A DNA stretch of 56,151 nt from Candidatus Kaiserbacteria bacterium (GCA_043729945.1 JAYTKW010000008.1:1-56151), one strand, 5' to 3'. Counted from the first letter of the stretch, positions 3,747 through 54,105 are shown. Program-made: numbers and translations. The notes: generated from the letters alone by a model not told the origin.

Positions 3747-3867
3747 TCCTCTTTACCAAGAGTTCACCATGAGTGAGTAGTATGAATGAGTACTCAACGT
3801 GAATGCATATAACAGCAGTATGCGGTCTGAGATACACCATTATTTACTTAAGATATAAAAACTAGAA

Positions 3868-3889
3868 AATAAGGGGACAGGCACATTTA
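3868..3889 (+). repeat. Left 22-bp inverted repeat flanking the RAYT-like gene
   Basis: AATAAGGGGACAGGCACATTTA is the reverse complement of 4634..4655 with one mismatch. Confidence 0.8.
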
Positions 3890-3918
3890 ATTCAGAAAAA
3901 GCATGGCATAATTTATCT

Positions 3919-4609
3919 ATGGCACGAGCAGCTCGAGTTGATATCGGTGGTCAGATATACCACGTTATGAATAGGGCTGTTGGCAGATTGCAGATATTTA
4001 ATACCGACGAAGATTATCTCACGTTTCTAAACATCCTTCGTGAAGCTGGTGAAACTAGTGTGGTGGAAGTGCTGGCATATTGTTGCATGCCAAATCATTG
4101 GCATCTCGTACTTCGTACTAAAGCAGATGGTGATCTAGGAAAGTATATGCAGGCTCACCAATGCACATACCCGTTTTGTACATACAAAAACACAAACTGT
4201 TGGAACTGGACCTCTCTACCAGGGAAGATACAAATCATTCATGGTTGACGACGACATACATCTCAAAACGGTTATAAAGTACGTTGAACGAAATGCTGCG
4301 CGGGCAAATCTGGTAGTCAAGCCAGAAGACTGGCGATGGGGGAGTGCTTGGCTGCGTATGAATGGAAACATTAAGCAAAAGAAATTACTGACGGAATTGC
4401 CTTTTGAACAAATTAATTATTTTGTCTGGCTCAATACAATTGACACCGAGAAAGAGTTAGAGCAAATCAGAAACTCAGTAAAGCGCGGAGTGCCATTTGG
4501 TCGTGAGAGGTGGGTTGACGCAATGGTAGAGAGGTACGGACTGGAATCGACCGTGCGTACTAAGGGGAGACCAAAGAAAGGGCAGGTGAAGGTTTTGGCT
4601 AATGAATAA
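3919..4609 (+). pseudogene. REP-associated tyrosine transposase-like (IS200/Y1 HUH family) gene, frameshifted
   Basis: ORF 3919..4248 carries the HUH motif (PNHWHLVL). ORF 4241..4609 carries the YVERNAARANLV..PEDWRWGS tail. Frame +1 from about 4154 reads LTNAHTRFVHTKTQTVGTGPLYQGRYKSFMVDDD and joins the two ORFs, so a 1-2 nt indel lies near 4150-4156. Confidence 0.8.
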
Positions 4610-4633
4610 AATTAGAACACAATTTTTGTAAAA

Positions 4634-4655
4634 TAAATGTGCCTGTCCCTTTATT
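4634..4655 (-). repeat. Right 22-bp inverted repeat flanking the RAYT-like gene
   Basis: TAAATGTGCCTGTCCCTTTATT pairs with 3868..3889. Confidence 0.8.
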
Positions 4656-4681
4656 ATCTATGCCTGTCCCTTTATTATCTA
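4640..4681. repeat. Perfect 21-bp tandem duplication TGCCTGTCCCTTTATTATCTA x2
   Basis: Units 4640..4660 and 4661..4681 are identical. The last CTA of unit 2 is the complement of the relE stop codon. Confidence 0.9.
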
Positions 4682-5382: not shown

Positions 5383-6771
5383 ATGAGTGAAAAATATGAA
5401 GATGGCAACACATCAGCTTCTGAAAATAGCTTGACAGAGAAGGACAAAAAACTAAACGCTCTTAGTTCGGAGTTATTAGATGTAACAAGAGACCTTTCAA
5501 TTGAGGTAATTAATACTATTGGTACAGCTGACTTTGAAATACCGGATCAGCACGCTGAAGTTAATGAAGAGTCTTTGGCAAAATTAAAATTGCAAATTCA
5601 GAGACTACAAGAATTAATTTTCAAAATTGAGTTTTTGTCTGAAATACATAGCTTAGCGGAAGCTATTGAATTTAGTAACGGGAGGGTTGAGTTAGTGTTT
5701 CAGCCGAAGACAGTAAATGTGCCTGAAAGTCGACCACTTAGCGAAATAGTGAGTGCTCCTGCTTTTGAGCTACCTGATATTAATGAGGTGGATGAGTATA
5801 ATGCACCAGAGGCATACATGGCTGCGCTACAAAATGAATCTGTTGTGAAAAGTGGGGTATATGAATGGGTGGCGGGGCGTATTGGTTATTTGCCAAAAGT
5901 AGAGGGTAAAAAAGTAGTTGAGGTGGTGGCGAAATTAGTTGCCCAAATTGATCCAGACAACCCTTGGTGTTTGGCTACGCTTACTGAATTAATGGCATTT
6001 GCTGTATCTCATCCAGAGCGAGTCGGTCATCACCCAATTGTAGCGGGCGGTGAAACTGATCCAAATCATTATCCAATGTGTTTGCAGCGTACGAGTACGG
6101 GCATGCGCCTGGATATGTATAGAGGAGGATTGTCACAAGAAGGAACAATCATCCTTCTTTCACGAGCTGGTGCAATAGATGTTGAAAATGCTGCAGGGGA
6201 TAGAGACACTGAAATTGATAGCGTAGTTGAAGAACCTCAATCATATGAAGCGAAAGTGCAGGAGTTCTATCGAGAGTTAGAAAAAGTTTCAGAGAGCGAT
6301 AGAGAGAAACTACGGAGCGTTGTCGAAGTAACTCAATTGCTAGGTTATGACTTTGCCAACCTACGTAGTAGATTGGGTGATATTGTTGTCGATAAAATAA
6401 TGAATGAAGTAATTGGTGCCAGAATTCCGACTAAAACACCTGGACCTGATGGATTGTATAGGATAGCGCCAGAGCGGGAGGAAATTTGTTTGGCAAATAT
6501 TGAGCGGGCCGGTCAAGTGGTTGATACAGACATGAGGGAAGAAATACTAACTATACTACGTAACCCGGATTTATTAAATTCTGATGTGATGAATTTGCGT
6601 GAGCGGGCAAGAGTATCACACGGTGTCCTCGTAGAACTTTTGAAATCTCTTGAAGTTGAGGCGGCATTTCCAAGAGCAGAACTAGACGAGCTCACAAAAC
6701 AGAGGAAAATATTGTCGAGCGCTATCGGCAACCAAAACAAACTAAATGTAATTCATCCACTTGTCAGCTAG
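5383..6771 (+). CDS. Hypothetical acidic protein with coiled-coil-like segments
   Basis: 462-aa ORF with balanced composition and no recognisable catalytic motif. Confidence 0.7.
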   Translation: MSEKYEDGNTSASENSLTEKDKKLNALSSELLDVTRDLSIEVINTIGTADFEIPDQHAEVNEESLAKLKLQIQRLQELIFKIEFLSEIHSLAEAIEFSNGRVELVFQPKTVNVPESRPLSEIVSAPAFELPDINEVDEYNAPEAYMAALQNESVVKSGVYEWVAGRIGYLPKVEGKKVVEVVAKLVAQIDPDNPWCLATLTELMAFAVSHPERVGHHPIVAGGETDPNHYPMCLQRTSTGMRLDMYRGGLSQEGTIILLSRAGAIDVENAAGDRDTEIDSVVEEPQSYEAKVQEFYRELEKVSESDREKLRSVVEVTQLLGYDFANLRSRLGDIVVDKIMNEVIGARIPTKTPGPDGLYRIAPEREEICLANIERAGQVVDTDMREEILTILRNPDLLNSDVMNLRERARVSHGVLVELLKSLEVEAAFPRAELDELTKQRKILSSAIGNQNKLNVIHPLVS

Positions 6772-16694: not shown

Positions 16695-16810
16695 CCAGAT
16701 AACCGCGGTTCACACACATGACGTTTACTTTTGATTTATTCAACAATCAATTAAGGACGTGTATGTATAAATAAAATGAGTACATTTATCATTTATATTA
16801 GTAAATTAAA

Positions 16811-16816
16811 TAATAT
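16811..16816 (+). promoter_or_regulatory. -10 box TAATAT, 7 nt before ATG 16824
   Basis: Supports the 16824 start, which yields a signal peptide. Confidence 0.4.
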
Positions 16817-16823
16817 CCAACTT

Positions 16824-17921
16824 ATGATTAATACATTAAAACAAATTACTGCATCTATTATTGCTGTTGCACTGACAGCCTGGTTAGTTAGTATGCCTGC
16901 CCTGGCCTACGAAAATGACTCGGTAGTGGTAACCAGTAATAATTCGGCTACTATTTCTAATGTGGCTATTTCTTCAGCAAATACGGGGGGTAACACCTCA
17001 CGTGGCGGCCGGGGTGGCCGGGGCGGGGAGGGTGGCGACGGTGGTAGCAATGCCGGTGCCGGCGGGTCAAGTATAAACTCTTCTCCTGGAGGTAGTACTC
17101 AGGAAGCTGGTGATGGCGCCCAAGGTGGTAACGGTGGTAATGCTGAGGGTGACGTTGACGGTATTGACGCACTCCAGCAAGGTGGTGCTGGTGGTAGTGG
17201 TGGTAGTGGTGGTAATACTGGCGCCGGTGGTACGGGGGGTAATAGCGGTACTGGTGGCACTGGCGGTTCTACTGGCGCCGGTGGTCATGGCGGTGATGGC
17301 GCCCAAGGTGGCAATGGTGGTTTGATTGAGACTGGTGAAGCGGTTGTAACATCAGACATTTCTAATGATGTAAACAACAATGACACTACGATCACTCGTG
17401 GCGCATCGTCTACGGCTGACCTTGATGAGACATCTGCTACCTCAACTGGTGATAATCAAGTCACGTTATCAAACGAGGCTGAGGCCACTGCCGATACTGG
17501 TAATAATGAATCGAAGGGTGGTAAAGGTGGTTCAGGTAACGAAGGTGGCGACGGTGGCAACAGTGCTGGTACCGGTGGTACTAGCGAGAACTCCTCTGCT
17601 GGAGGTAGTACTCAGGGGGCTGGTGATGGCGCCCAAGGTGGTAACGGTGGTAATGCTACGTCAACCCCTCCCTCTGAAGTTGATGGCACACAGCTAGCTG
17701 GCAATGGTGGCGCTGGCGGTAATGGTGGCGCTACTGGCGCCGGTGGTGTCGGTGGTAACAGCGGAACAGGCGGGGCTGGTGGTAATACCGGAGTCGGCGG
17801 ATCAGGCGGCAACGGTGCAGCTGGCGGTGAAGGGGGGATTGTACGAACCGGGCGCGCTGATTCATGGAGTAACGTCGTCAATGTTGTTAATCGCAACATT
17901 ACTCGTATCACTAGAAATTAA
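16824..17921 (+). CDS. Secreted glycine-rich repeat protein (GGxGGxGG tracts), internally duplicated
   Basis: Signal peptide ending PALAYE. There are two homologous modules, each of the form ...NTGGN/NTGNN - Gly tract - GSTQxAGDGAQGGNGGNA. The protein ends in a VVNVVNRNITRIT beta-strand-like motif. Confidence 0.8.
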   Translation: MINTLKQITASIIAVALTAWLVSMPALAYENDSVVVTSNNSATISNVAISSANTGGNTSRGGRGGRGGEGGDGGSNAGAGGSSINSSPGGSTQEAGDGAQGGNGGNAEGDVDGIDALQQGGAGGSGGSGGNTGAGGTGGNSGTGGTGGSTGAGGHGGDGAQGGNGGLIETGEAVVTSDISNDVNNNDTTITRGASSTADLDETSATSTGDNQVTLSNEAEATADTGNNESKGGKGGSGNEGGDGGNSAGTGGTSENSSAGGSTQGAGDGAQGGNGGNATSTPPSEVDGTQLAGNGGAGGNGGATGAGGVGGNSGTGGAGGNTGVGGSGGNGAAGGEGGIVRTGRADSWSNVVNVVNRNITRITRN

Positions 17922-32281: not shown

Positions 32282-33562
32282 ATGCGAACCACTAAGAATA
32301 TCATTGCCTTTGTTGGCGGGATTAAACCTAATTCACTTGAGGCAATTCGCGAGTATGGCAAAAAAAATGGAGTCAAATACCAGATAATGTTGATTCAAGA
32401 CAAGCGGCATGAACGAAAAAATGAGGAACCGAGTACCCGTATTCCCCAACAAGACATTACAGTGCAGGTAGATTTCTCTAAACCGGAAAAGATTACCGAA
32501 GCCCTCTTGCCATACGAGGACTCATTGTTGGCGATTTCCTGTCGGAGCGAAGTGCATATTGCCCGCTTTGCAAAAATTATTCCCTGTGTACCGTATTTAC
32601 GTACACCAACGAGTGAGTCACTGACGTGGGCCACTGATAAATATGAGATGCGCAAACGATTTAAACTGTACGATCCGAAAATTACCCCATCCTTTACTCG
32701 CGTCAAAGATACTACGGCTGGTGAACGACAACGACTGATTACCAAAATTGGGTTTCCCATGATTATTAAACCGGCTAATCTCTCGGGTAGTTTGTTTGTG
32801 AGTATTTGTTATCACGAAGAAGATTTAAAAAAAGACCTTGCGACCTGTTTTCGTAAACTTCGCAAAGCCTATGAAAGCGATAAGCGTCTGGAAGAGCCCA
32901 AAGTAATTGCCGAACAATACATGGAAGGAGATATCTATTCGATTGATAGTTATGTCAATTCGCGCGGGTCGGTATATCACTTGCCACTAGTGCGGGTAAA
33001 GACGGGGAAAGACATTGGACACCAAGATTTCTATGGCTATCTGCAAATGACTCCAACTATTTTAAAACGCGAAACGATTAAGCGCGCTGAGGCTGTTACC
33101 GAAACGGCGATCCATGCGCTCGGATTACGGAGTACTACCGCCCACACGGAACTCATGAAGATTGACGGCGAGTTCAAAGTAATCGAGGTCGGACCTCGTA
33201 CCGGTGGGGCGCGTGATGTACTGTATAAACTCAGTTGTGGTATTGAGCATTATCTCAATGACGTGCTAATTCGGATGCCGAAAAAGCCAATCATACCTAA
33301 AAAATGTAACGGGAACGCTGTCTATATGAAATGGTTTTTACCAAAAGAGGGAATCATCGCCTCGATGACCGGTATCAAGAAAATAGAACAATTAGAATCA
33401 TTTTATAAAATTGAAGTGAATAAAAAAATTGGCGACCGGGCGACGTTTGCGCGTAGTGGTGGGCGGTCAGTGTTTAATCTCTATATGTATAACGCTGATC
33501 GGGGACAGTTGTTGGCTGATATACGGAGAGTCGAACAGTTGGTAAAAATTAAGCTTCGGTAG
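32282..33562 (+). CDS. ATP-grasp domain protein (carboxylate-amine ligase class)
   Basis: GFPMIIKPANLSGS, EQYMEGDIYSIDSY and KVIEVGPRTGG are ATP-grasp signatures. Confidence 0.83.
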   Translation: MRTTKNIIAFVGGIKPNSLEAIREYGKKNGVKYQIMLIQDKRHERKNEEPSTRIPQQDITVQVDFSKPEKITEALLPYEDSLLAISCRSEVHIARFAKIIPCVPYLRTPTSESLTWATDKYEMRKRFKLYDPKITPSFTRVKDTTAGERQRLITKIGFPMIIKPANLSGSLFVSICYHEEDLKKDLATCFRKLRKAYESDKRLEEPKVIAEQYMEGDIYSIDSYVNSRGSVYHLPLVRVKTGKDIGHQDFYGYLQMTPTILKRETIKRAEAVTETAIHALGLRSTTAHTELMKIDGEFKVIEVGPRTGGARDVLYKLSCGIEHYLNDVLIRMPKKPIIPKKCNGNAVYMKWFLPKEGIIASMTGIKKIEQLESFYKIEVNKKIGDRATFARSGGRSVFNLYMYNADRGQLLADIRRVEQLVKIKLR

Positions 33563-33565
33563 AGA

Positions 33566-33686
33566 GGAACGCCAAAAATCGCGAATTCCTGCGTTACGCT
33601 ACAGTAATTTTCGTTCACCGTACAAAAAGTACGGCTCACGCTAATTACTTTGCGTGCCTTGAACTCCATCGATTTTATGACGTTCC
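33566..33686 (+). repeat. Extended-hairpin 3'-UTR element, copy A (121 nt)
   Basis: Outer stem GGAACGcCAAAAATCG / CGATTTTaTGaCGTTCC, middle stem AGTAATT / AATTACT, and apical hairpin CACCGTAC-AAAAA-GTACGGCTCAC. It starts 4 nt after the ATP-grasp stop codon. Confidence 0.8.
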
Positions 33687-33721
33687 ATTGAGCGCTTGTG
33701 ATTATGTAAGATTATAAAAAG

Positions 33722-37285: not shown

Positions 37286-38269
37286 ATGGCGGCTTGGATT
37301 TTACTGGCAACGGCCGGACAATTTGTGAATGCCATTGTGGCGTTCTTGGACAAATATATCGTGTCTGATGAAACGGCGTTGCCAAAACCGTTTATCTACG
37401 CGTTTTACTCGTGTCTGCTTACTGGTGGGTGGATTGTAATTTATTTGATTGGATTTGTGCCGGGGTTGAGTACCCTTGGTGTACCACATTTAGCCAATGT
37501 ACACACCCCGTCGATTCAAGTAGTGGCAATGGCGTTTTTGTCCGCCTATACTTTTTTTATGGCGCTGGTATCGATGTATTCGGCCTTGCGTAGCGCCGAG
37601 GCGGTGAATGTGATGCCGGTCATTGGGGTAATTTCGGCGATTTCCTCACTCGGAATGGTGTATTTGTTCCTGGACGTAGTGCTCGAACCAAATTTTATTT
37701 GGGGGATTGTGGTATTGTCTCTCGGCACGCTCTTGGTAGCACAAACCCTACCGCACATTGATACCGTAATCCATGTCATTCATAGTGGAGTATTTTTTGC
37801 TCTCCATTTCATTACCATGAAAGGACTCTTTCAAGAAACTAGTTTTGATGATGGGTTCTTTTGGTCGAGGATTTGTTTTGTGTTGTTTGCTCTATCATTG
37901 TTACTAGTTCCTACGTACTATAAAAAGATCCGTGAACAAACAGGACTTACTACTAAAAAAACCGGGGCGCTGGTACTTGTGACAAAGATCCTGGCGGGTG
38001 TTGGTGCCTTTATGATTTTGAAAGCCACCGACATGGGGGATGTGGCCGTAGTGCAGGCGCTTGATGGGGTCAAATTTGTATTTATTTTACTGATTACAAT
38101 TTTCTTTGGGGCGTTATTACCGGATAGCGCAGTCGAACATGTGACCAAACCAAGCGAAGTCATGCGGCGGGTGCTGTATGTGCTCGTGATTGCGGCGGGC
38201 TATTTCATCCTGTTTGGTAGTGTCGATTATTTATATCTTTTTACCCAAGTCTATGCGCCGATTACGTAA
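37286..38269 (+). CDS. Polytopic membrane protein (about 10 TM, DMT/EamA-like impression)
   Basis: 327-aa hydrophobic ORF between two glycosidase genes. Confidence 0.78.
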   Translation: MAAWILLATAGQFVNAIVAFLDKYIVSDETALPKPFIYAFYSCLLTGGWIVIYLIGFVPGLSTLGVPHLANVHTPSIQVVAMAFLSAYTFFMALVSMYSALRSAEAVNVMPVIGVISAISSLGMVYLFLDVVLEPNFIWGIVVLSLGTLLVAQTLPHIDTVIHVIHSGVFFALHFITMKGLFQETSFDDGFFWSRICFVLFALSLLLVPTYYKKIREQTGLTTKKTGALVLVTKILAGVGAFMILKATDMGDVAVVQALDGVKFVFILLITIFFGALLPDSAVEHVTKPSEVMRRVLYVLVIAAGYFILFGSVDYLYLFTQVYAPIT

Positions 38270-39260
38270 AATTTTATACTGGATACTGGGTATTCTCGTG
38301 CTGCTGGGCCTTACAGTGGCGTGGCTGGCGTATAAGCCGGTACCTGAGCAGATTACCTACGGTATGTCGTTTAATACCGTCTATGCCCGGGAGCTGGGGC
38401 TCGACTGGAAAGAAACCTACGATGCGATTTTGCATGATCTGGGGGTGCGTAACCTGAGACTAGCTGCCCACTGGCCAATGGTTGAACCAGCCCGTGACAC
38501 CTATAATTTTGAGGAGCTTGATTACCAGATATCTGAAGCCGAGAAAGCAGGTGCCACCATTGTGCTAGCCGTGGGCAGACGTTTGCCCCGGTGGCCTGAA
38601 TGCCACATTCCTACCTGGGCCCGCGAAGAGAGTTGGGACGACCAGAAAATTCAATTACGTGAGTATATCACCGCCGTTGTCGAGCGGTACAAAAATAGCC
38701 CGGCTATTAATTACTGGCAGGTCGAGAATGAGCCGTACCTAGCGTTGTTTGCCTTTGAGCACTGTGGAGCGCTCGATGAAGATTTTTTGAAAGAAGAAAT
38801 TGCCTTGGTACATGAGCTTGATCCCAGCAGGCGAGTGCTCGTGACCGACAGTGGAAATTTAGGAACCTGGGCTGGAGCCTATCGTAACGGGGACGCGTTT
38901 GGCACGAGCGTGTATGTGCATTTTTGGAATCCCGAGTTAGGTCAGTTCAAAACATTTCTCCCGCCCTGGTTTTATCGTGCTAAAGAAAAAGTCATCGCTT
39001 TGCGATACGGCGAGAAACCGACGTTTTTGATTGAGCTATCAGCTGAACCATGGCTGGTTGAGCCGGTAGTCAATGTTCCAATAGATATCCAGTACACTCG
39101 AATGGATGTTGCAAAATTTAATGAAATTTTAGACTATGCCCGCCATACTAGGTTCGATCAACAATATCTATGGGGGGCCGAATGGTGGTATTGGCTGAAG
39201 CAACAGAACGAGCCGGCAATGTGGGATAGAGGTAAAGAACTATACGACACAAGTAAATAA
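38253..39260 (+). CDS. Membrane-anchored clan GH-A (TIM-barrel, GH5/GH42-like) glycoside hydrolase
   Basis: The ATG at 38253 gives a TM anchor. RLAAHWPMVEP is present, as is the acid/base motif WQVENEPYL. Confidence 0.78.
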   Translation: MRRLRKILYWILGILVLLGLTVAWLAYKPVPEQITYGMSFNTVYARELGLDWKETYDAILHDLGVRNLRLAAHWPMVEPARDTYNFEELDYQISEAEKAGATIVLAVGRRLPRWPECHIPTWAREESWDDQKIQLREYITAVVERYKNSPAINYWQVENEPYLALFAFEHCGALDEDFLKEEIALVHELDPSRRVLVTDSGNLGTWAGAYRNGDAFGTSVYVHFWNPELGQFKTFLPPWFYRAKEKVIALRYGEKPTFLIELSAEPWLVEPVVNVPIDIQYTRMDVAKFNEILDYARHTRFDQQYLWGAEWWYWLKQQNEPAMWDRGKELYDTSK

Positions 39261-39261
39261 A

Positions 39262-39377
39262 ACTTCCAAAAATTGCACATCGCGTTGTTGTCCTGCAAAA
39301 AAATATCATTCACCTTACAGTGGTAAGGCTCAAGTTATTTTTCTAGTACGCCTAGCGCTGTATCAATTTTAGAAAGT
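39262..39377 (+). repeat. Extended-hairpin 3'-UTR element, copy C1 (116 nt)
   Basis: Outer stem ACTTCCAAAAATTG / CAATTTTAGAAAGT, middle stem AAAAATA / TATTTTT, and apical hairpin CACCTTAC-AGTG-GTAAGGCTCA. It starts 2 nt after the stop codon. Confidence 0.78.
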
Positions 39378-39488
39378 CTCTTCGAAATCCTTTCAGTGTT
39401 CTCCGTCGAAAAATAATGTGCACCTTACAGTAAGTAAGGCTCACCTTATTTTACTTTTCCCCCTATCTCAGCATCTATTTTATGAAAG
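39378..39488 (+). repeat. Extended-hairpin 3'-UTR element, copy C2 (about 111 nt), abutting C1
   Basis: Outer stem CTCTTCGAAAT / ATTTTATGAAAG, middle stem AAAATAA / TTATTTT, and apical hairpin CACCTTAC-AGTAA-GTAAGGCTCAC. Confidence 0.72.
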
Positions 39489-44904: not shown

Positions 44905-46131
44905 CTACTTAGTATCGTGTAAAAAGAGCGTGAGGAAAATACCGATTGTCATACATAAAGCGAGCACGAGGAACGCTAATTTAAATGGTAAAAACAGCAG
45001 GGTAACACTCCCGAGTAGGGCTCCGAGGAGGGTCGCCAGTGACCGCATGAGGCGAAATAGGCTGATGAGTTCAGCGTCTTGGCCGTCGACTTTTTTAAAA
45101 AAGTAACTCTCGGTGGTGACCTCAACCAAACTCGCCCCTAGTCGACTAACAAACATTAACAACATCCACATCACAGTGACGGTGGTAGCGAGGGCGGTAA
45201 TTCCGGCACTCGTGATGGCTAAAATCAAAAAACCCACCGCCATCATTTCTTTTTCTCCCCAGTAATTATCGGCCATGATACCAATTGGGTATTCCCACAC
45301 CAAGTAGCTAAAGAGTCCGGCCGCAATAATATACCCAATAGCCGACCAACTGAGTCCTACGACTGTTTTTAAATACAGAGGAATATAAATCATTGACCAG
45401 GTAAAAAATATCTGGAGAATAAAATGGGTCATCATCACAATCCGGATATCAATCGTGCGCCAGGCACTTTTGATTAGCGTACTGCATTTGATAACGGTGT
45501 ATTCAGGATCATAAAAATGGCGAAAGACGCCGACGATTATCACCATAAACAGTAGTCCGAGAACAATAGCTACGGTGTACAGTTGTGCCAAATCGTTGCC
45601 TTCACCAACGAGATAACCCATAAGCAAGGGGGCAGCGAGCGCCGCACCACTCATCAGGGCAAGTGCGAGTCCGCGTTTATGTCCAGTACCGCCTTCACGT
45701 TTTCCAATTAATGTTTCGGAGAAAATATCTATATTGAGATGAATGAGGGGGTTCAGGGCTTGGAAAGCGACAAAACTGACGATGACGATAAATGCCGAGA
45801 GACCACTCCCCACAAACCACAAGGTAATAATTGAACCTAACATCAACACCAAGGTAACGAGGACGTTACCAAACTGGCGTAACAGTGCCGGTAGGGAGAG
45901 AAAAATAAAAATCGAAAATAATGACCCAACTGAATACAATAGTCCAATATAGCTCGGGTTAATAAACCCACCCATATAGGTCGAGCTTGAATAGGCTACC
46001 AAAAGCGTCTGGAACATAAAAACCACCGCAATTAAATAGGTATACCAAAATTTTATATTGTGCATCCGACTAATCTCCGGCCTCAAGTACTGACTCAAAT
46101 ACATACGTAGAGTAAGTGTACTAGATTTCAA
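44905..46131 (-). CDS. MFS-type transporter (12 TM)
   Basis: 408-aa hydrophobic ORF with a two-fold 6+6 helix layout. Confidence 0.75.
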   Translation of the reverse strand: MKSSTLTLRMYLSQYLRPEISRMHNIKFWYTYLIAVVFMFQTLLVAYSSSTYMGGFINPSYIGLLYSVGSLFSIFIFLSLPALLRQFGNVLVTLVLMLGSIITLWFVGSGLSAFIVIVSFVAFQALNPLIHLNIDIFSETLIGKREGGTGHKRGLALALMSGAALAAPLLMGYLVGEGNDLAQLYTVAIVLGLLFMVIIVGVFRHFYDPEYTVIKCSTLIKSAWRTIDIRIVMMTHFILQIFFTWSMIYIPLYLKTVVGLSWSAIGYIIAAGLFSYLVWEYPIGIMADNYWGEKEMMAVGFLILAITSAGITALATTVTVMWMLLMFVSRLGASLVEVTTESYFFKKVDGQDAELISLFRLMRSLATLLGALLGSVTLLFLPFKLAFLVLALCMTIGIFLTLFLHDTK

Positions 46132-46181
46132 GGTTCTAAATTATCCTATGATGTGGAGAAGAATGCGTAGAATACCGCCGG

Positions 46182-46424
46182 CTACACATTTGTAACCGGC
46201 GGCATCAACACATCAAGATTGTGGTAAACCAAAGTGCAATCAAGCCAGAATTGCTCAACACTGCCAGGATACCCAATCAGGGTAATATAACAATGATTGT
46301 GGGGAGATTCACGACCTGGTTCTTTTAGGTACATATAATCGCCCCTCGCATAGGTTTGATGACTAAAGAACGAAACGCCCCACCAATTTTCAAGATCATG
46401 ACACTCAGTAATTCCATAAGACAT
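46182..46424 (-). CDS. Hypothetical small protein
   Basis: 80-aa ORF with AGGAG 6 nt upstream of the ATG and a TATACT box further upstream. Confidence 0.55.
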   Translation of the reverse strand: MSYGITECHDLENWWGVSFFSHQTYARGDYMYLKEPGRESPHNHCYITLIGYPGSVEQFWLDCTLVYHNLDVLMPPVTNV

Positions 46425-46492
46425 CGTTTTCTCCTATGTTTTCATAGTATATGATTACTATAAAAAACATAAAAGTGCAAGCATCCCCAGCC

Positions 46493-46526
46493 AAAAACCC
46501 CAGAGCCGTAAGGCTGTGGGGTTTTT
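46493..46526 (-). terminator. Bidirectional intrinsic terminator downstream of rnj and element D
   Basis: AAAAACCCCAGAGCC-GTAA-GGCTGTGGGGTTTTT. Confidence 0.78.
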
Positions 46527-46592
46527 GGTTTTCGTTTCAACAAGTGATGAATCTGTTTTAGAAATGCGCTCGTTTTACTAGAGCCACGCCAA

Positions 46593-46710
46593 CTGCTGCA
46601 GAAAATCTGCTAGTACGAGGCGGCAAGGAGGAAATACGTGAGCCGTACTTTTGTACGGTAAACGTATTTCTGACGCGGACAACGAAGTAATCGCTGATTT
46701 TATGCAGCAG
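46593..46710 (-). repeat. Extended-hairpin 3'-UTR element, copy D (118 nt, minus strand)
   Basis: Read on the minus strand: outer stem CTGCTGCATAAAATC / GATTTTCTGCAGCAG, middle stem GAAATACGT / ACGTATTTC, and apical hairpin ACCGTAC-AAAA-GTACGGCTCAC. It starts 5 nt after the rnj stop codon. Confidence 0.8.
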
Positions 46711-46714
46711 TGTG

Positions 46715-48793
46715 TTATAAGCCGATAAGGACTGGGATGACCATTGGAGATTTCTGAGTCCGCTGCATCAAAAACTGACTCACAATATCTGTTAGTTCGT
46801 CTTTGACGTAATCGAGATCAAGCGGGTTCATTTTCTCGGTATATTTTTCAATAGTTTTCTTGATCAATACACGTGCTTCGGAGAGGAGTAATTGATTCTC
46901 ACGGAGGTAAATAAAACCGCGGGAAATGATGTCTGGTGATTTGCGTAATTTACCAGTTTTGGCGTTGACGGTTGCAATAATGACGAACATACCGTCTTGA
47001 GAGAGAGACATACGATCACGCAAAACGACTTCTTGGCGCGCACCAACGGTAAAGCCATCGACGACCACCATCTCTGTTGGAATCTTGGTCTTGTGGCGGA
47101 TGATTTCGGTACCGTTTTTAATATCGATGATAGTACCGTTATCTGGCACTACTACATTTTCCTTAGGGAAGCCGTTTTCAACCGCTGCAAACATGTGGCT
47201 CTTGAGGTGGTAGTGGTGGCCGTGGACGGGGATGAGGAATTTTGGTTTGATAGTTTGATGTACCCAGACCAGTTCACCCGCGTTACCATGTCCTGAGGCG
47301 TGGACGTGTGAACCTTGGAAGTTTACGACTTTGACGTTCCGTCGGTAAATATTGTCTTTGAGTTTCTGGACAGCAATTTCATTACCGGGAATAACCGATG
47401 ACGACAACACTATCGTATCCCGTTCGTTGAGGATAATTTGTTTGTGTTTATCCTGAGCCATCCGCATGAGGGCGGCGAACTCTTCACCCTGGGCCCCAGT
47501 AGAGAGGATGACAATTTGGTCTGCTGGGTAATTTGGGATGTCGCCGGCACTAATGAACGTTTGTGGTTTAGCGACCAGCATTTTAGCCTGGATAGCAATT
47601 TCAATAGCGACTTTGATACTCCGTCCTTCCATCACGACTTTTTTACCCAATGCTTCACAGACATTAATCACACCAATGAGGCGGTCAAATTGTGAGGCAA
47701 AGGTACCGATAATCATACGACCTTTGGTAGTGCGAATAATCTCTTCGAGGGTGAGGAACACTTTGGCTTCTGACACCGAGAAACCGCTGCGGTCAGCGTT
47801 GGTTGAATCACAAATTAGAACTAGGTTGTTGTGAGTACCAACTTCTTCCCAGGATTTTTTTTCTTCGACTACAACTTCGCCGTTTACGTTATTGAGTTTA
47901 ATGTCTCCGGTCACCACAACGTCACCGTGTTTAGTTTCGATGGCGAGACCCATAGCGTCAGGAATCGAGTGGGTGACAGGAAATGTCCGGATGCGGGTAC
48001 TGCCGACCGTAAAAGCCTCACCCTCTTTGACAACATGAATATCAACCGGCTCCATGTGCGGGAACTCTTCTTGACGTTTGAGAATCATCAGTGAGGTCAG
48101 GTATTGGGTGTAGATTGGTGGGTTACCGAGGCGCTCCATCACAAATGGGATACCACCGATGTGGTCGAGGTGGCCGTGGGTGACCACGAGTGCGCGGATT
48201 TTATCTTTGCGCTCTTCGAGGTACTGTGTATTTGGCAAAATGTACTGGATACCCGGCGCGTTGCTCTCTTCGGATACAAATTGGAAACCAGCATCGATAA
48301 CAATGATGTCAGCGGCTGTTTCAACGATAATCATGTTACGGCCAATTTCTTCTACACCAGATACCGGAATGATACGAACCGTGTCCAGGTCCGTGATGGT
48401 TGGCAATATCGGATTTTTCTCATCGGTGACGGTCATCCGGTGGGTGAGAGCGGGGCTCGTCATCGGCCGACGACCATTACCGCCGCCATTTCGTTTGCGA
48501 TTATTGTTACGTCCACCACGCTTGGCAGGTGCTGTGCCTGTGCCTGCGGACGCAGCAGCGCTGTCAGTTGGTCTCCTCGCGGGAGTGTGAGGTAATCTGC
48601 GGGCTGGTGCTTGGTGTAATCCGGCGCCAGTACGTGGCGCAGATGATTGGCCTGGTCGAGAGCCCTGGGGTCTACTACCACGATTAAAAGGGCGACGTTG
48701 TGGTCGAGCTTGATTGAGGTTGGTGGATGTTGTGGTCGGGACAGGATTTGCGGGTGCGGTGGGTTGGTGCGGCTGTGATTGTGGTGTGTTCAT
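46715..48793 (-). CDS. rnj: Ribonuclease J with about 130-aa Arg/Gly/Pro-rich disordered N-terminal extension
   Basis: The metallo-beta-lactamase motif VTHGHLDHIGG, a beta-CASP region and a conserved C-terminal domain. The N-terminus is rich in RGG/RRP/NNRKRNGGG. Confidence 0.95.
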   Translation of the reverse strand: MNTPQSQPHQPTAPANPVPTTTSTNLNQARPQRRPFNRGSRPQGSRPGQSSAPRTGAGLHQAPARRLPHTPARRPTDSAAASAGTGTAPAKRGGRNNNRKRNGGGNGRRPMTSPALTHRMTVTDEKNPILPTITDLDTVRIIPVSGVEEIGRNMIIVETAADIIVIDAGFQFVSEESNAPGIQYILPNTQYLEERKDKIRALVVTHGHLDHIGGIPFVMERLGNPPIYTQYLTSLMILKRQEEFPHMEPVDIHVVKEGEAFTVGSTRIRTFPVTHSIPDAMGLAIETKHGDVVVTGDIKLNNVNGEVVVEEKKSWEEVGTHNNLVLICDSTNADRSGFSVSEAKVFLTLEEIIRTTKGRMIIGTFASQFDRLIGVINVCEALGKKVVMEGRSIKVAIEIAIQAKMLVAKPQTFISAGDIPNYPADQIVILSTGAQGEEFAALMRMAQDKHKQIILNERDTIVLSSSVIPGNEIAVQKLKDNIYRRNVKVVNFQGSHVHASGHGNAGELVWVHQTIKPKFLIPVHGHHYHLKSHMFAAVENGFPKENVVVPDNGTIIDIKNGTEIIRHKTKIPTEMVVVDGFTVGARQEVVLRDRMSLSQDGMFVIIATVNAKTGKLRKSPDIISRGFIYLRENQLLLSEARVLIKKTIEKYTEKMNPLDLDYVKDELTDIVSQFLMQRTQKSPMVIPVLIGL

Positions 48794-48832
48794 AAATGTA
48801 GGTGTTACTGAGGGATAAATGTTAAAAATTAT

Positions 48833-50599
48833 TTATTGAAAGAGAGGCCAGAGTCGGTCAGTATTCATGTGCCACTGATTACTATTCATAAAGCGTTCTT
48901 GTGGTTTACTGATCCCGTCCATCGGGGTAACGCTCGCAGTACTGTCTAATACATACACAAAGTTTGGGACATAGAGGAATGAGGCAGGCACCTCACGAGT
49001 CAAGATACTAGCAACTTGAGTATTGGCATTTATCCTAGCGTCGGTTCCGGTGGCGGTGCGGGCTTTTTGGAGCAGGGTGTCGACTTCGATGTTGGCGTAG
49101 CCGGCGATGTTGAGTCCCGGATCAGTCCTTTGCGAAGAGTGCCAAAATGGATATAAATCCATAGCCCGACTCATATCAAGACCAAATAAAAGTCCTTCAA
49201 AATCGCGGGGCCGAATGACTGATTGTAACAGGTCGCTCTGCTCGAATTGTTCAATTTGCACTTCGACACCTAGTTCACGCCAGGTGCGGGCAATTATTTC
49301 TGTGGTCCGTTCAAACAGAGGCGTATTCGCTGTTCGTAGGGTGATCCGTAAGGTTTCTGTCTGGCCGTCGATCTTTTTTTCGTACCCACCGCTACTATTT
49401 TTGGTCCAGCCGGCTTTGGCTAGGATAGTACTGGCACGATCTAGAGTGCTAGTACTGGCGGTTTCGGTACTTTCATTCTGACTGGTTGATTCTACCTCAC
49501 GACTCGTTTCTGGTATAGGGGTAGAGATGGGGACGCCGAAACCATCAAGCGCCTGAGTCACAATATCAGCACGATCAAGAGCGGTACTCAGGGCCAATCG
49601 TACCGCAGTGTCACGCAGTACGGGTGATTTATTTTGGTTAAAGAACACTGCAAATACTCGAGGTAGTGGCTCTGTGATAACGGTGTAGGCACTGTTACTG
49701 TTGAGACCATTTACCGTACTGGCTGGTAAATAGGCGGTACTGGTAATTTCATGATTGGAAAATGCCGTGACAAGAGACTCTTCGTTTTTATAAAATTGTA
49801 ATACTAAGGTATCTAGTTGGACATCAGTATTTTTTGAAAACGCCGTGAGGCGGTAACTGTTGATTAGGCCGGCTTCGTCAGTAACTGTTTTGTAGACCAT
49901 AAATGGTCCAGCGCCAACGGGGTTGGTATTTAGTTTACTAAACGGCACTTGCTCGACCGGTACTGTACCCCACAGGTGTTTCGGGAGGATTCCCAAAGTA
50001 AAGTTTTCTGAAAACGGAGCGTACGGTTCAGTAAGAACGATGTTGAGCTCGTATTCGTTGATTTCCTCAATGGTCACATCTGTCCAATTACCGCGTAACG
50101 GGCTCTTGAGATCCGGGTTTTGAATCAAGCGAATGGTAAACGCGACGTCGCTTGCTGTCAGAGGCGTGTCGTCGTGGAAACGAAGGTTCTTACGCATAAT
50201 AACATTGTACGTTTTTCCATCATCTGAAACAGTGATGCTCTCAGCCAGGTCAGGCGCTAGGGCACCCTCAGGGTTGATTTTCATCAGTCCCGCGAAAATT
50301 AGCGCCGTGGCATCGAGGTCGGCCCTGGTTACCGCGAGAGTAGGATTAATAAAACGTGGTGTACCAACCAGGCCTTCAATCAAAGTCCCGCCCTGGGCTG
50401 GTACTTCCGCAGTGTGGTTGTTGTTCCATAAAATAAGGGCACTAAGGGTACTGCCGATTATCACAAAGAACGCAATCCGGAGAATAATCCGATCACTGGT
50501 TGGTCTGGCTTCGATTACATTCAGTAATCGTTCGACGAGACTGCGGTATCTACTTTTGGGGTGCGAAAAACGGAGTGACATAATGGGTGTGTTGACCAC
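48833..50599 (-). CDS. ABC-transporter family-5 solute-binding protein (peptide/nickel class), membrane anchored
   Basis: N-terminal TM segment. The TLIEGLVGTPRFINP start is typical of SBP_bac_5. 588 aa. No cognate permease or ATPase gene is present in the window. Confidence 0.88.
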   Translation of the reverse strand: MVNTPIMSLRFSHPKSRYRSLVERLLNVIEARPTSDRIILRIAFFVIIGSTLSALILWNNNHTAEVPAQGGTLIEGLVGTPRFINPTLAVTRADLDATALIFAGLMKINPEGALAPDLAESITVSDDGKTYNVIMRKNLRFHDDTPLTASDVAFTIRLIQNPDLKSPLRGNWTDVTIEEINEYELNIVLTEPYAPFSENFTLGILPKHLWGTVPVEQVPFSKLNTNPVGAGPFMVYKTVTDEAGLINSYRLTAFSKNTDVQLDTLVLQFYKNEESLVTAFSNHEITSTAYLPASTVNGLNSNSAYTVITEPLPRVFAVFFNQNKSPVLRDTAVRLALSTALDRADIVTQALDGFGVPISTPIPETSREVESTSQNESTETASTSTLDRASTILAKAGWTKNSSGGYEKKIDGQTETLRITLRTANTPLFERTTEIIARTWRELGVEVQIEQFEQSDLLQSVIRPRDFEGLLFGLDMSRAMDLYPFWHSSQRTDPGLNIAGYANIEVDTLLQKARTATGTDARINANTQVASILTREVPASFLYVPNFVYVLDSTASVTPMDGISKPQERFMNSNQWHMNTDRLWPLFQ

Positions 50600-50699
50600 A
50601 GTGCAAGCATAGTTAGATAGTGAGCACCGTCGGGTCTACCTTATTTACTGATAAACAGCTACCAGGGTACAGACTACTTTTCGGTCGAGAAATGGATAC

Positions 50700-50939
50700 T
50701 TACGCGAGGATATTAATCAAGGCTGAAGCTACGAACAAAACGGCGATTCCAATCGAAAACTTGAACAGGAAAAGCTCTGCGCCACGGCGTTTGTGAAAAG
50801 CTGAACTAAAGTTGTCACCACCAAAGGCGCCACCTAAACTTGATCCGCGCTGTTGTAGTAAAATAGCGGCAATCAGGAGAACGGCGAGCGTAATTTGGAT
50901 AAATGGTAGTGCTGGCTGCAGCAAGTGGATAATTTCCAT
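50700..50939 (-). CDS. secG: Preprotein translocase subunit SecG
   Basis: Two TM helices flank LLQQRGSSLGGAFGG. The start is set at the ATG at 50939. Confidence 0.85.
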   Translation of the reverse strand: MEIIHLLQPALPFIQITLAVLLIAAILLQQRGSSLGGAFGGDNFSSAFHKRRGAELFLFKFSIGIAVLFVASALINILA

Positions 50940-51027
50940 GTGACGGCAATGGTAGCACAACTATCGGTAAATTGCAAAATAAGGATACGGATATTCTGTG
51001 GAATGCATCTGCAGGGTCCGCCCTAAC

Positions 51028-51100
51028 GCCCACTACTATTTTACAGCCCGGTCCTCGCTCCAGGCATGGTCGCTGCGGGGGCTGTAAAATAGTAGTGGGC
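51028..51100. repeat. Perfect 22-bp inverted repeat with 29-nt GC-rich spacer
   Basis: GCCCACTACTATTTTACAGCCC (51028..51049) and GGGCTGTAAAATAGTAGTGGGC (51079..51100). The repeat overlaps the last 20 codons of the ORF 51041..51613. Confidence 0.9.
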
Positions 51101-51613
51101 TACGGGCTGCTGGATGTAACGTAAAAAGAAACCGCCCGAACCCACGTTGCGAGGCCGGGAGGGTCTCTTGTAGGTTCGGGCAGATTTCACACGACTTGGA
51201 TTTTTCTTTTTGTCGAGTAACAACCTATTCATATCTGCCCAGGCACGAGGTGGCTCAGCCTTGAAAAGCTCCTGGTATGAAAACATCGTATCGAACATCC
51301 CACGGTGGTCAGTGTGACCACGCCAAGCGAGATCTCGCGGATGCATAAACTTTCTAAAGTAACTTATGCAATCATTATAATACTGAACTCGGTCTGATTC
51401 ATGAACTCGTTGTACGGCCATGATTGAACCTGGTGCGACAACTCGTTTTTGCGGGAAGTTGAGTATTAGTCGCCAAAAACGCTTGTATTCTTCGACTAAT
51501 TCTGCCAGTAGATCCTGGCTAGCGTTATGGGCCGGATACCACTGTGCCAGTGTTATTTTGAGTCCAGACTCAGGCAGAATTGGCGGTCCATAGTGTGGAG
51601 TTGTTACATTCAC
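51041..51613 (-). CDS. Hypothetical protein (GRDP/DUF1399-like impression); C-terminus runs into the inverted repeat
   Basis: 190-aa ORF. The segment YKRFWRLIL..P...V.P...M..VQRVHESD...Y..DC loosely matches DUF1399. The family call is low confidence. Confidence 0.6.
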   Translation of the reverse strand: MNVTTPHYGPPILPESGLKITLAQWYPAHNASQDLLAELVEEYKRFWRLILNFPQKRVVAPGSIMAVQRVHESDRVQYYNDCISYFRKFMHPRDLAWRGHTDHRGMFDTMFSYQELFKAEPPRAWADMNRLLLDKKKNPSRVKSARTYKRPSRPRNVGSGGFFLRYIQQPVAHYYFTAPAATMPGARTGL

Positions 51614-52167: not shown

Positions 52168-53821
<1,654 letters not shown>

Positions 53822-53823
<2 letters not shown>

Positions 53824-53942
53824 AAGCTTAAAATCGGCCAGCTACTTTGTTGCACTGCAGAAATTTACCATCACCCTACAGTAAGTAGGGCTCACGTAAA
53901 TTTCATTGTGCGCCTCGTATCTGTCTCGATTTATAGACTTTT
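53822..53942 (+). repeat. Extended-hairpin 3'-UTR element, copy E1 (121 nt)
   Basis: Outer stem AAAAGCTTAAAATCG / CGATTTATAGACTTTT, middle stem GAAATTTAC / GTAAATTTC, and apical hairpin CACCCTAC-AGTAA-GTAGGGCTCAC. It overlaps the groEL stop codon. Confidence 0.82.
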
Positions 53943-53958
53943 AACTAAAAATAAAACA

Positions 53959-54077
53959 GAACGGTAAAATCACTGCATCTGCTTCGTTAGCCTTCAGAAA
54001 ATTATTCTCAACGTACAGAAAGTACGTCTCGAAAAATTTTCCTCGTCCGCCTCGCAGCTACAGCAATTTAACCATTC
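53959..54077 (+). repeat. Extended-hairpin 3'-UTR element, copy E2 (119 nt)
   Basis: Outer stem GAACGGTAAAATCACTG / CAGCAATTTAACCATTC (imperfect), middle stem GAAAATT / AATTTTC, and apical hairpin CAACGTAC-AGAAA-GTACGTCTC. Confidence 0.78.
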
Positions 54078-54105
54078 TTATCTACTCTTCATTAAGATAA
54101 AAACA

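Follow-up and report, generated by a model that had tools for sequence, protein, structure and literature searches.

The gene for RNase J (rnj) in this 56,151-nt stretch of a Candidatus Kaiserbacteria genome (the window, meaning the whole stretch of DNA that was analysed) is followed by a long imperfect hairpin that recurs after other genes of the window and is inverted here together with the gene it follows. The question raised by this locus is what kind of element sits so closely against a stop codon and follows the direction of its gene, and whether the mRNA is the molecule in which its fold is conserved. The rnj product carries the beta-CASP, C-terminal and metallo-beta-lactamase domains of RNase J (Pfam), and the features of the locus are the following.

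46593..46710, minus strand (mRNA sense): rnj copy of the hairpin element, about 118 nt, from reading of the sequence and folding
46590-46715: covariance-model match of the rnj copy, the better-folding strand being plus
46715-46717, minus strand: rnj stop codon TAA, 4 nt before the strong stem
46715-48793, minus strand: rnj (RNase J) open reading frame, with Pfam RNase J domains
about 46492..46529, both strands: bidirectional intrinsic-terminator-like hairpin, about 65 nt past the element when read along rnj

The arms of the rnj copy, CTGCTGCA and TGCAGCAG, form a stem closed by positions 46593 and 46710. The initial annotation located this hairpin correctly after the rnj stop codon but gave a gap of 5 nt, whereas the distance from the stop codon to the strong stem measures 4 nt and weaker pairing reaches the stop codon itself. 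Folded as mRNA-sense RNA the copy has an energy of -42.2 kcal/mol (z = -6.7 against shuffles), and the complementary strand reaches -51.4 kcal/mol (z = -7.6). Its placement between the stop codon and a bidirectional terminator, for which 46493-46526 had been proposed, is confirmed, that interval lying within a G+C-rich hairpin that spans about 46492-46529. An A-run and a T-run give this hairpin U-runs on both sides, and it folds whichever strand is read (-27 kcal/mol with z = -4.5 and -32.6 kcal/mol with z = -6.7). This terminator was missed by a simple consensus scan because its stem contains one internal mismatch. The RNase J protein has an N-terminal extension of about 130 aa (48404-48793, minus strand) that is low in complexity, rich in Pro, Gln, Arg, Gly and Asn, and precedes the catalytic domain. 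The gene belongs to a minus-strand block (44905-51613) that includes an MFS transporter, a small ORF, rnj, SBP_bac_5 and others and runs head-on to the replication implied by the skew; this block may be a local inversion that took the rnj copy along.

Searches of the window with nhmmer and with an unfiltered covariance model returned exactly six copies of the element and none else at E <= 1, the five in addition to the rnj copy being these.

33561-33687, plus strand: copy after an ATP-grasp ligase gene (32282-33562), with the strong stem 3 nt past the TAG stop
39255-39381, plus strand: copy directly 3' of the stop of a glycosyl-hydrolase-like gene (38190-39260)
39395-39465 (nhmmer 39391-39483), plus strand: degenerate partial copy in tandem with 39255-39381
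53817-53943, plus strand: copy directly past the groEL stop, with TAA ... TTA closing the stem
53954-54080, plus strand: second groEL copy, of a different subfamily and 62% identical to the first

The element takes up roughly 1.3% of the 56-kb window, in which the core motif occurs five times against none expected from shuffles, and identity among the copies of this genome is 45-62%. The second groEL copy forms its long stem on the complementary strand only (-55.4 versus -27.8 kcal/mol). The five copies behind plus-strand genes all point one way and the rnj copy, behind a minus-strand gene, points the other, so that by the covariance model the orientation equals the direction of the upstream gene in six of six copies, in agreement with the earlier reading. 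The six copies occupy four intergenic regions, of which only three are tandem, so that by itself the window is statistically weak on this point; the orientation rule is made robust by a census in other genomes.

The core, or apical, motif TGAGCCNTACN{3,4}TGTANGGT was found at no fewer than 116 loci (at least 116, with one genome per species), mostly in Patescibacteria/CPR and often on several contigs of a genome. Hosts among the matches listed are Saccharibacteria, Kaiser-, Pacei-, Zambryskii-, Nomura-, Lloyd- and Vogelbacteria and Minisyncoccia. The relatives of the window's element, RNase J and Y1 transposase suggest indirectly that the genome is probably Saccharibacteria-like. A profile HMM built from the six window copies gave 102-114 mostly full-length matches in the motif loci among the matches listed, and where the motif was matched in other phyla the HMM similarity ended at the motif. 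Eight core-pattern matches in IMG/VR viral contigs covered the apex only, with no full element, and carriage by phages was rejected on this ground. Short forms of the element measure about 115-125 nt and modular long forms up to about 200 nt. Rfam 15 recognised only a tRNA in the whole window at the gathering threshold, and at E <= 10 gave only noise, on the terminator in the case of the element region and likewise for the long form in locus L091. No description of the element was found in the literature on hairpins, repeats, MITEs and ncRNAs of Patescibacteria and Saccharibacteria; the TIGR-Tas arrays that this search turned up, which are arrays of 36-nt guide RNAs, were judged a different thing. 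The element thus appears to form a previously undescribed family across the Patescibacteria.

Neighbouring genes were called on the fetched loci by a simple greedy ORF procedure; of the 79 copies with two called neighbours, 66 have an upstream gene in their own direction. Tandem gene contexts contain 40 co-oriented copies and 6 in the opposite direction (p = 3e-7), and the orientation relative to flanking genes, which a census was expected to find either random or not, is non-random in the fetched loci. Convergent junctions hold 26 of the 79 copies (33%) and make up 14.5% of all gene junctions (p = 3e-5). Position is equally constrained: in 46 of 71 copies the apex lies 49-55 nt from the stop codon, the mode being 51-52, and across the family the stem usually includes the stop codon as its outermost part. 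Pairing begins with the very first base past the stop in 36 of 57 cases. Outermost pairs examined with 25-nt pads gave no information, as AT-rich flanks pair spuriously there. The first base of the 3' flank is T in 20 of 22 copies with TAA stops (TTA in 13) and C in 8 of 12 with TAG stops, a covariation of the third stop base with the flank that has a Fisher p of 2e-4. As TA is self-complementary, this pairing can equally be read as TA-R ... Y-TA, with TA flanks outside a terminal base pair. TGA stops are rarer than in the background (4 of 71 versus 13%), a difference that is non-significant (p = 0.08). The order stop codon, element, terminator recurs in other loci, with a canonical terminator 10-80 nt downstream in about a quarter of the copies, the rnj copy included, and most of these terminators are bidirectional.

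C-terminal sequences identify the upstream genes as those for ClpP, GroEL, EF-Tu (two), SecY (three), S10 (three, plus one more), S7 (two), L6, MetK, Pgk and a DEAD-box helicase. The same core genes precede the element in distant classes, S10 in four and S7 and EF-Tu in two each. The earlier suggestion that the hosts include highly expressed genes and the RNA-decay nuclease holds in its first half, GroEL, EF-Tu, SecY, S10 and S7 being core and probably highly expressed; the association with rnj is not conserved, the element following rnj in only 4 of about 57 loci. Because many copies lie inside ribosomal-protein operons, the mRNA-sense RNA of the element is certainly made.

A strand-specific insertion into single-stranded DNA had been offered as another source of the fixed orientation. 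All 4-kb bins of the window show a positive plus-strand GC skew, those of the minus-strand block with rnj among them, and five 8-kb loci (L021, L044, L062, L084 and L091) contain both orientations, each copy matching its own upstream gene. Uniform skew and mixed-orientation loci together tie the orientation to the gene and not to the replication fork, which contradicts the replication-linked form of that suggestion; a gene-linked strand-specific insertion is possible.

An alignment of 84 distinct copies yields one long hairpin as its consensus, built from an outer stem and an apical stem-loop together with a pair of AAAAT/ATTTT boxes and two internal loops that are asymmetric and conserved. 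Paired cells make up 90.5% of the 84-copy alignment, against 67% in column shuffles and 33-45% with slid partners, and compensatory double changes occur at 27 of 29 pairs; none of 500 shuffles reaches the observed values. For a hairpin so nearly palindromic, the informative question is which strand tolerates wobble pairs. Across the 84 copies the paired columns contain 236 G-U pairs on the complementary strand and 40 on the mRNA strand, 157 versus 40 when one near-invariant pair is left out, and 296 versus 37 in an independent alignment. That near-invariant G-U and the adjoining tandem G-A/A-G exist on the complementary strand only: the symmetric 5'-GA/5'-GA columns beside it, conserved in 80-81 of the 84 copies, are a classic tandem sheared G-A on the complementary strand and a UC/UC mismatch on the mRNA strand. 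The complementary-strand fold carries a T-rich apical loop besides.

Folding energies point in the same direction, the complementary strand folding better in 109 of 110 copies (mean -52.9 versus -38.1 kcal/mol) and in the consensus (-17.3 versus -2.6 kcal/mol), a gap that is partly compositional, since shuffles differ between the strands too. The excess of C over G on the mRNA strand is confined to the element, absent in the flanks and opposite to the local GC skew. These sequence patterns most probably mean that selection acts on the fold of the complementary strand; a selected base composition of the mRNA strand could be an alternative source of part of the G-U asymmetry. The initial annotation had taken the orientation to argue for a function at the mRNA level, and of this argument the orientation stands, whereas wobble pairs, tandem G-A and folding energy favour the strand opposite to the one on which it was built.

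In long forms, further conserved hairpins lie past the apical stem and before the 3' loop, in the order TTCCTTACAGGAAC, then GTCCACTCATTGG...CAATGAGTCTTGCA, then a third small hairpin. The extra module replaces the apical stem in some members and is nested in or adjoins the element in others, and for the resulting multi-branched forms of about 200 nt the complementary strand is once more the one that folds better. Long forms or second modules are found at these loci.

L085, 5993-6176
L005, 7762-7960
L091, 5298-5466
L135, about 5500-5650
L019, 195-560
L079, 2786-3050

Such a modular build is more characteristic of structured nucleic acids with a function than of simple MITEs. The apex GAGCC...GGUGA resembles on paper both domain V of group II introns and the hammerhead core; the bulge and upper helix of the former and the CUGA box of the latter are lacking and Rfam reports neither, and both candidates were rejected.

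The distribution of the element at orthologous sites is patchy. Among about 57 metagenomic loci whose RNase J is 67-94% identical, the element follows rnj in four (L120, L136 and L139 = L147), the stems of these four rnj-locus copies are very different, and the C-terminus of RNase J and its stop position are unchanged with or without the element. A second comparison of filled and empty sites is provided by L153/L155 and L157/L152. For 75 of 84 copies the closest relative comes from a different genome, some of these being orthologous sites, and one 89%-identical pair follows unrelated genes in two genomes. After secY, one Kaiserbacteria genome (L093) has a single copy and a relative (L062) has four head-to-tail; the array copies are 48-60% alike, the most distal is an 87% orthologue of the L093 copy, and the downstream flank is common to both. 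This arrangement suggests that new units may be added at the stop-codon side of arrays. The two groEL copies of different subfamilies stand in tandem, and degenerate copies exist. Copies at the same site in distant classes (S10, S7, EF-Tu, SecY) have identities of 0.44-0.62, compared with 0.53 +/- 0.07 for random pairs, and are either independent arrivals at favoured sites or ancient copies diverged to saturation. A long target-site duplication was considered and rejected, the gene-end repeat at L153 and rnj not being general (real mean 5.32, control 5.34). Most relatives are without the element after rnj and have in its stead (L121-L131, L140, L169, L173) a conserved hairpin, AAAAATCCATAGTACAC..GTACTATGGATTTTT, about 30-70 nt past the stop and with the ATG of the next gene inside its 3' arm, which could serve translational or transcriptional control.

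A partner for the element was sought in several forms. No split arms around ORFs, as an autonomous version would have, were found in about 1.4 Mb of fetched loci, for which half-arm HMMs were too weak; no reverse transcriptase was found among the Pfam-scanned genes adjoining the window copies, and no integrase beside them. The flanks had no information content and no -10 peak at a fixed distance, as an antisense promoter or sRNA gene would show, and an independent antisense sRNA gene was rejected on the lack of a positional -10 signal and of a conserved flank. One transposase gene is present in the window.

3919-4609 (unit 3863-4681), plus strand: frameshifted Y1 transposase, RAYT-like/IS200-like (Pfam)

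After repair of the frame this gene gives a full-length Pfam Y1_Tnp match of 60 bits and scores 65.7 bits against the NCBIfam model of REP-associated tyrosine transposases, below the cut-off of 80. Homologues of about 223 aa and 56-61% identity are widespread in CPR, with Kaiserbacteria, Lloydbacteria and Minisyncoccia as named sources, and occur in housekeeping contexts, after rpoBC and near dnaA-rnpA. The window gene is flanked by inverted repeats carrying GGGGACAGGCA, with one extra unit on the right, and the flanks in the window and in six homologous loci consist of inverted GGGGACAG(G/C)CAC units and not of the hairpin element. In 106 kb around homologous Y1 genes the covariance model found one copy of the element, about 7 kb from the gene and after rpsJ. 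The Y1 enzyme was rejected as a cognate RAYT, as it has its own ends and no flanking element; a different flanking repeat and a single copy in 106 kb leave a link between the two without support. The Y1 system looks like a conserved, possibly domesticated system separate from the element, and shows that enzymes acting on single-stranded DNA hairpins are resident in these genomes. Elsewhere in the window, an ORF at 16776-17921 with no Pfam family contains tandem coding repeats of about 513 nt (17028-17818) with Gly-rich GGTGATGGCGCCCAAGGTGG units.

Set against known systems, the element is probably best seen as a variant within a known kind, the interspersed palindromic elements at gene ends, with a real chance of something more unusual. 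Like the REPs, BIMEs and REPINs of Enterobacteria and Pseudomonas, it is a multi-copy extragenic palindrome (six in 56 kb) at the 3' ends of genes or between cistrons, and is co-transcribed. The movement of REPINs, which are long hairpins of some 100 nt, is attributed to a single-copy Y1 (HUH) transposase acting on single-stranded DNA, and REPs near stop codons affect the upstream gene. The element differs in having no GTAG-type foot motif, its conserved parts being internal loops and tandem G-A; in being one long hairpin of 115-125 nt with conserved asymmetric loops and not two short REPs; in the 45-62% identity of its copies within a genome, where those of REPINs are near-identical; in its strict orientation and a stem flush with the stop codon; and in not flanking the Y1 gene of the window, as expected of a REP/REPIN-RAYT pair. 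Correia elements of Neisseria and ERIC/IRU of Enterobacteria, both MITE-like, are likewise imperfect palindromes of 100-155 nt that are co-transcribed and give long RNA hairpins, and the TA-R ... Y-TA flanks of the element may be compared with those of Correia elements, which are TA-flanked and for which no transposase is known. Correia and ERIC/IRU are restricted to a genus or family, have sequence-conserved ends and occur in both orientations, whereas the element has covarying stems with only its loops conserved, ranges over a superphylum, and is fixed in orientation to the gene and in position to the stop codon. As a MITE it would have arms that are complementary but vary and covary in sequence, TA-R ... 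Y-TA fitting either a TA duplication or an extension of the stem, and, unusually for MITEs, loop sequences conserved across CPR classes. Palindromes derived from IS200/IS605 have their active hairpin strand on the lagging-strand template, which makes them follow replication; the element departs from them in the rnj copy, which is inverted under a uniform GC skew, and in the folded strand, which is the leading-strand template in co-directional genes; the gene-tied orientation removes the IS200/IS605-type version of the single-stranded DNA idea.

Among other intercistronic repeats, MIRUs are oriented with operon transcription and overlap the upstream stop codon, a likeness that extends to the element; MIRUs are direct repeats with small ORFs for translational coupling and not hairpins, and the element is a hairpin without this small-ORF logic. 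Intrinsic terminators consist of a short G+C-rich hairpin and a U-tract of 7-9 nt, unlike the element with its imperfect stem of about 50 bp, in which the only U-run is of 4-5 nt and lies inside the outer stem. The msr-msd ncRNA of retrons occurs once per system upstream of a reverse transcriptase, unlike an element in multiple copies beside core genes.

We tentatively put forward the reading of a possible mobile element, non-autonomous and of REPIN/MITE-like kind, which is transcribed with its gene as a 3' hairpin and has a partner reading the complementary strand. New copies would be installed against the stop codon in one fixed orientation relative to the gene, and transcription with the gene would produce a 3'-UTR or intercistronic hairpin with the stop codon in its base. 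Since the fold is conserved on the complementary strand, the partner would read that strand, most likely as single-stranded DNA and less likely as antisense RNA, and would be the machinery that propagates or maintains the element and not an mRNA-binding factor. The weaker mRNA hairpin would be a tolerated by-product, possibly useful as a flush 3' cap, which would account for the persistence of the element in operons and behind core genes of probably high expression. We infer mobility from the patchy rnj loci, the filled and empty sites, the 89% pair after different genes, the arrays and the degenerate copies; what kind of molecule is folded, what its partner is and whether the mRNA benefits are likewise inferred. 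Against mobility stand the lack of a transposase or autonomous version in the fetched loci, the maintenance of the fold at 45-62% identity, which is more like long-term constraint than a young mobile family, and a conservation of loops across CPR classes that is unusual for MITEs. No DNA transposition mechanism is known to recognise a stop codon, so that stop-codon targeting, with no long target duplication, would be without a known mechanism; the best-folding strand is rarely single-stranded in co-directional genes; and the G-U asymmetry could in part reflect selection on which bases the mRNA strand contains. That distant classes have the element behind the same core genes would also fit a function for the host. 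A rather less probable reading, in line with the initial annotation, is that of a cis-acting mRNA element, a 3'-UTR or intercistronic hairpin that would protect the upstream cistron against 3'-to-5' exonucleases or act as a processing or insulator site. It would be kept after highly expressed genes by raising or uncoupling expression, and its flush position would keep the stop codon in trimmed mRNAs. The transcribed orientation, the stem beginning at the stop codon, the frequent position upstream of a canonical terminator and the enrichment at convergent gene ends (33% versus 14.5% of junctions) agree with this, as do the stability of the mRNA-strand hairpin (z = -6.7), the enrichment of GroEL, ClpP, EF-Tu, SecY, S10, S7, L6 and MetK upstream, and within-genome copies that are old by their identity and still fold. 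However, wobble and G-A pairs favour the opposite strand by about 4-6 to 1, conserved positions become A-C and pyrimidine-pyrimidine mismatches on the mRNA strand, most orthologous rnj loci are without the element, same-site copies in distant classes are no more alike than random pairs, and arrays of up to four with degenerate copies are hard to fit to a cis-regulatory need.

That the complementary strand is itself the functional RNA, either as a polar device that terminates antisense transcripts or marks them for cleavage or as a family of small antisense RNAs, is improbable. In its polar form the device would fold only in antisense RNA entering the 3' end of the gene, for instance from bidirectional promoters or convergent genes, and be transparent to sense transcription; G-U pairs, tandem G-A and a purine-rich complementary strand are typical of functional RNA, a short U-run follows the inner hairpin, wobbles at the helix base would weaken the hairpin in the sense direction only, the element occupies the last position before the coding region, and convergent junctions are enriched. 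But the flanks give no positional -10 signal or conservation, antisense transcripts reaching copies in ribosomal-protein operons would already have crossed the downstream genes, the U-run of 4-5 nt is followed by pairing needless for a terminator, and the bidirectional terminators that often lie just outside the element would already stop antisense RNA. More improbable still is a bottom-strand recombination site of the kind of the integron attC or the Xer hairpin of CTX phage, used by a tyrosine recombinase and receiving units at the stop-codon side. An attC site is an imperfect palindrome of 60-140 nt past the stop codon, co-oriented with its gene, folded on the bottom strand and conserved at unpaired positions; the element matches this geometry, varies in its apical part and has arrays that seem to grow at the proximal end. 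The alignment read by eye has no paired RYYYAAC ... GTTRRRY core sites, the only GTT/AAC motif being in an internal loop on the wrong arm; there are no cassette arrays and no integrase beside the window copies, the flanking genes are core genes of conserved operons, and elements occur singly every few genes instead of after each ORF. Unlikely too, if less remote than either of these, is a new genetic unit: a structured single-stranded nucleic acid (template-strand DNA or antisense RNA), spread through the whole radiation and installed at stop codons with single-nucleotide precision by sensing the end of translation or the uncoupling of transcription and translation, or a polar "anti-antisense" guard of core genes, with the long forms as the full-length functional RNA or DNA. 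Recognition of the stop codon is explained by neither the mobile-element, the host, the antisense nor the recombination reading, and beside it stands the paradox of one strand transcribed and the other folded.

Patescibacteria have very small genomes of about 1 Mb, and the element is found inside their ribosomal-protein operons, and behind groEL, tuf and secY, in lineages whose divergence is very old. If it is mobile, its stop-codon-adjacent, gene-oriented specificity of insertion goes beyond any known transposition mechanism; if it is a host element, a third of bacterial diversity would have a major layer of gene-end architecture that is as yet unannotated. The strand paradox, in which one strand is transcribed and the other folds best, is testable in the few Saccharibacteria that are culturable and genetically manipulable. 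A covariance model of the family would improve CPR annotation with respect to gene ends, spurious small ORFs and assembly breaks. Mechanical ORF calling produced spurious ORFs of 70-100 aa running through the element in L068, L005, L082, L062, L077, L038 and others, and false small proteins of this sort have probably entered CPR genomes through automatic annotation.
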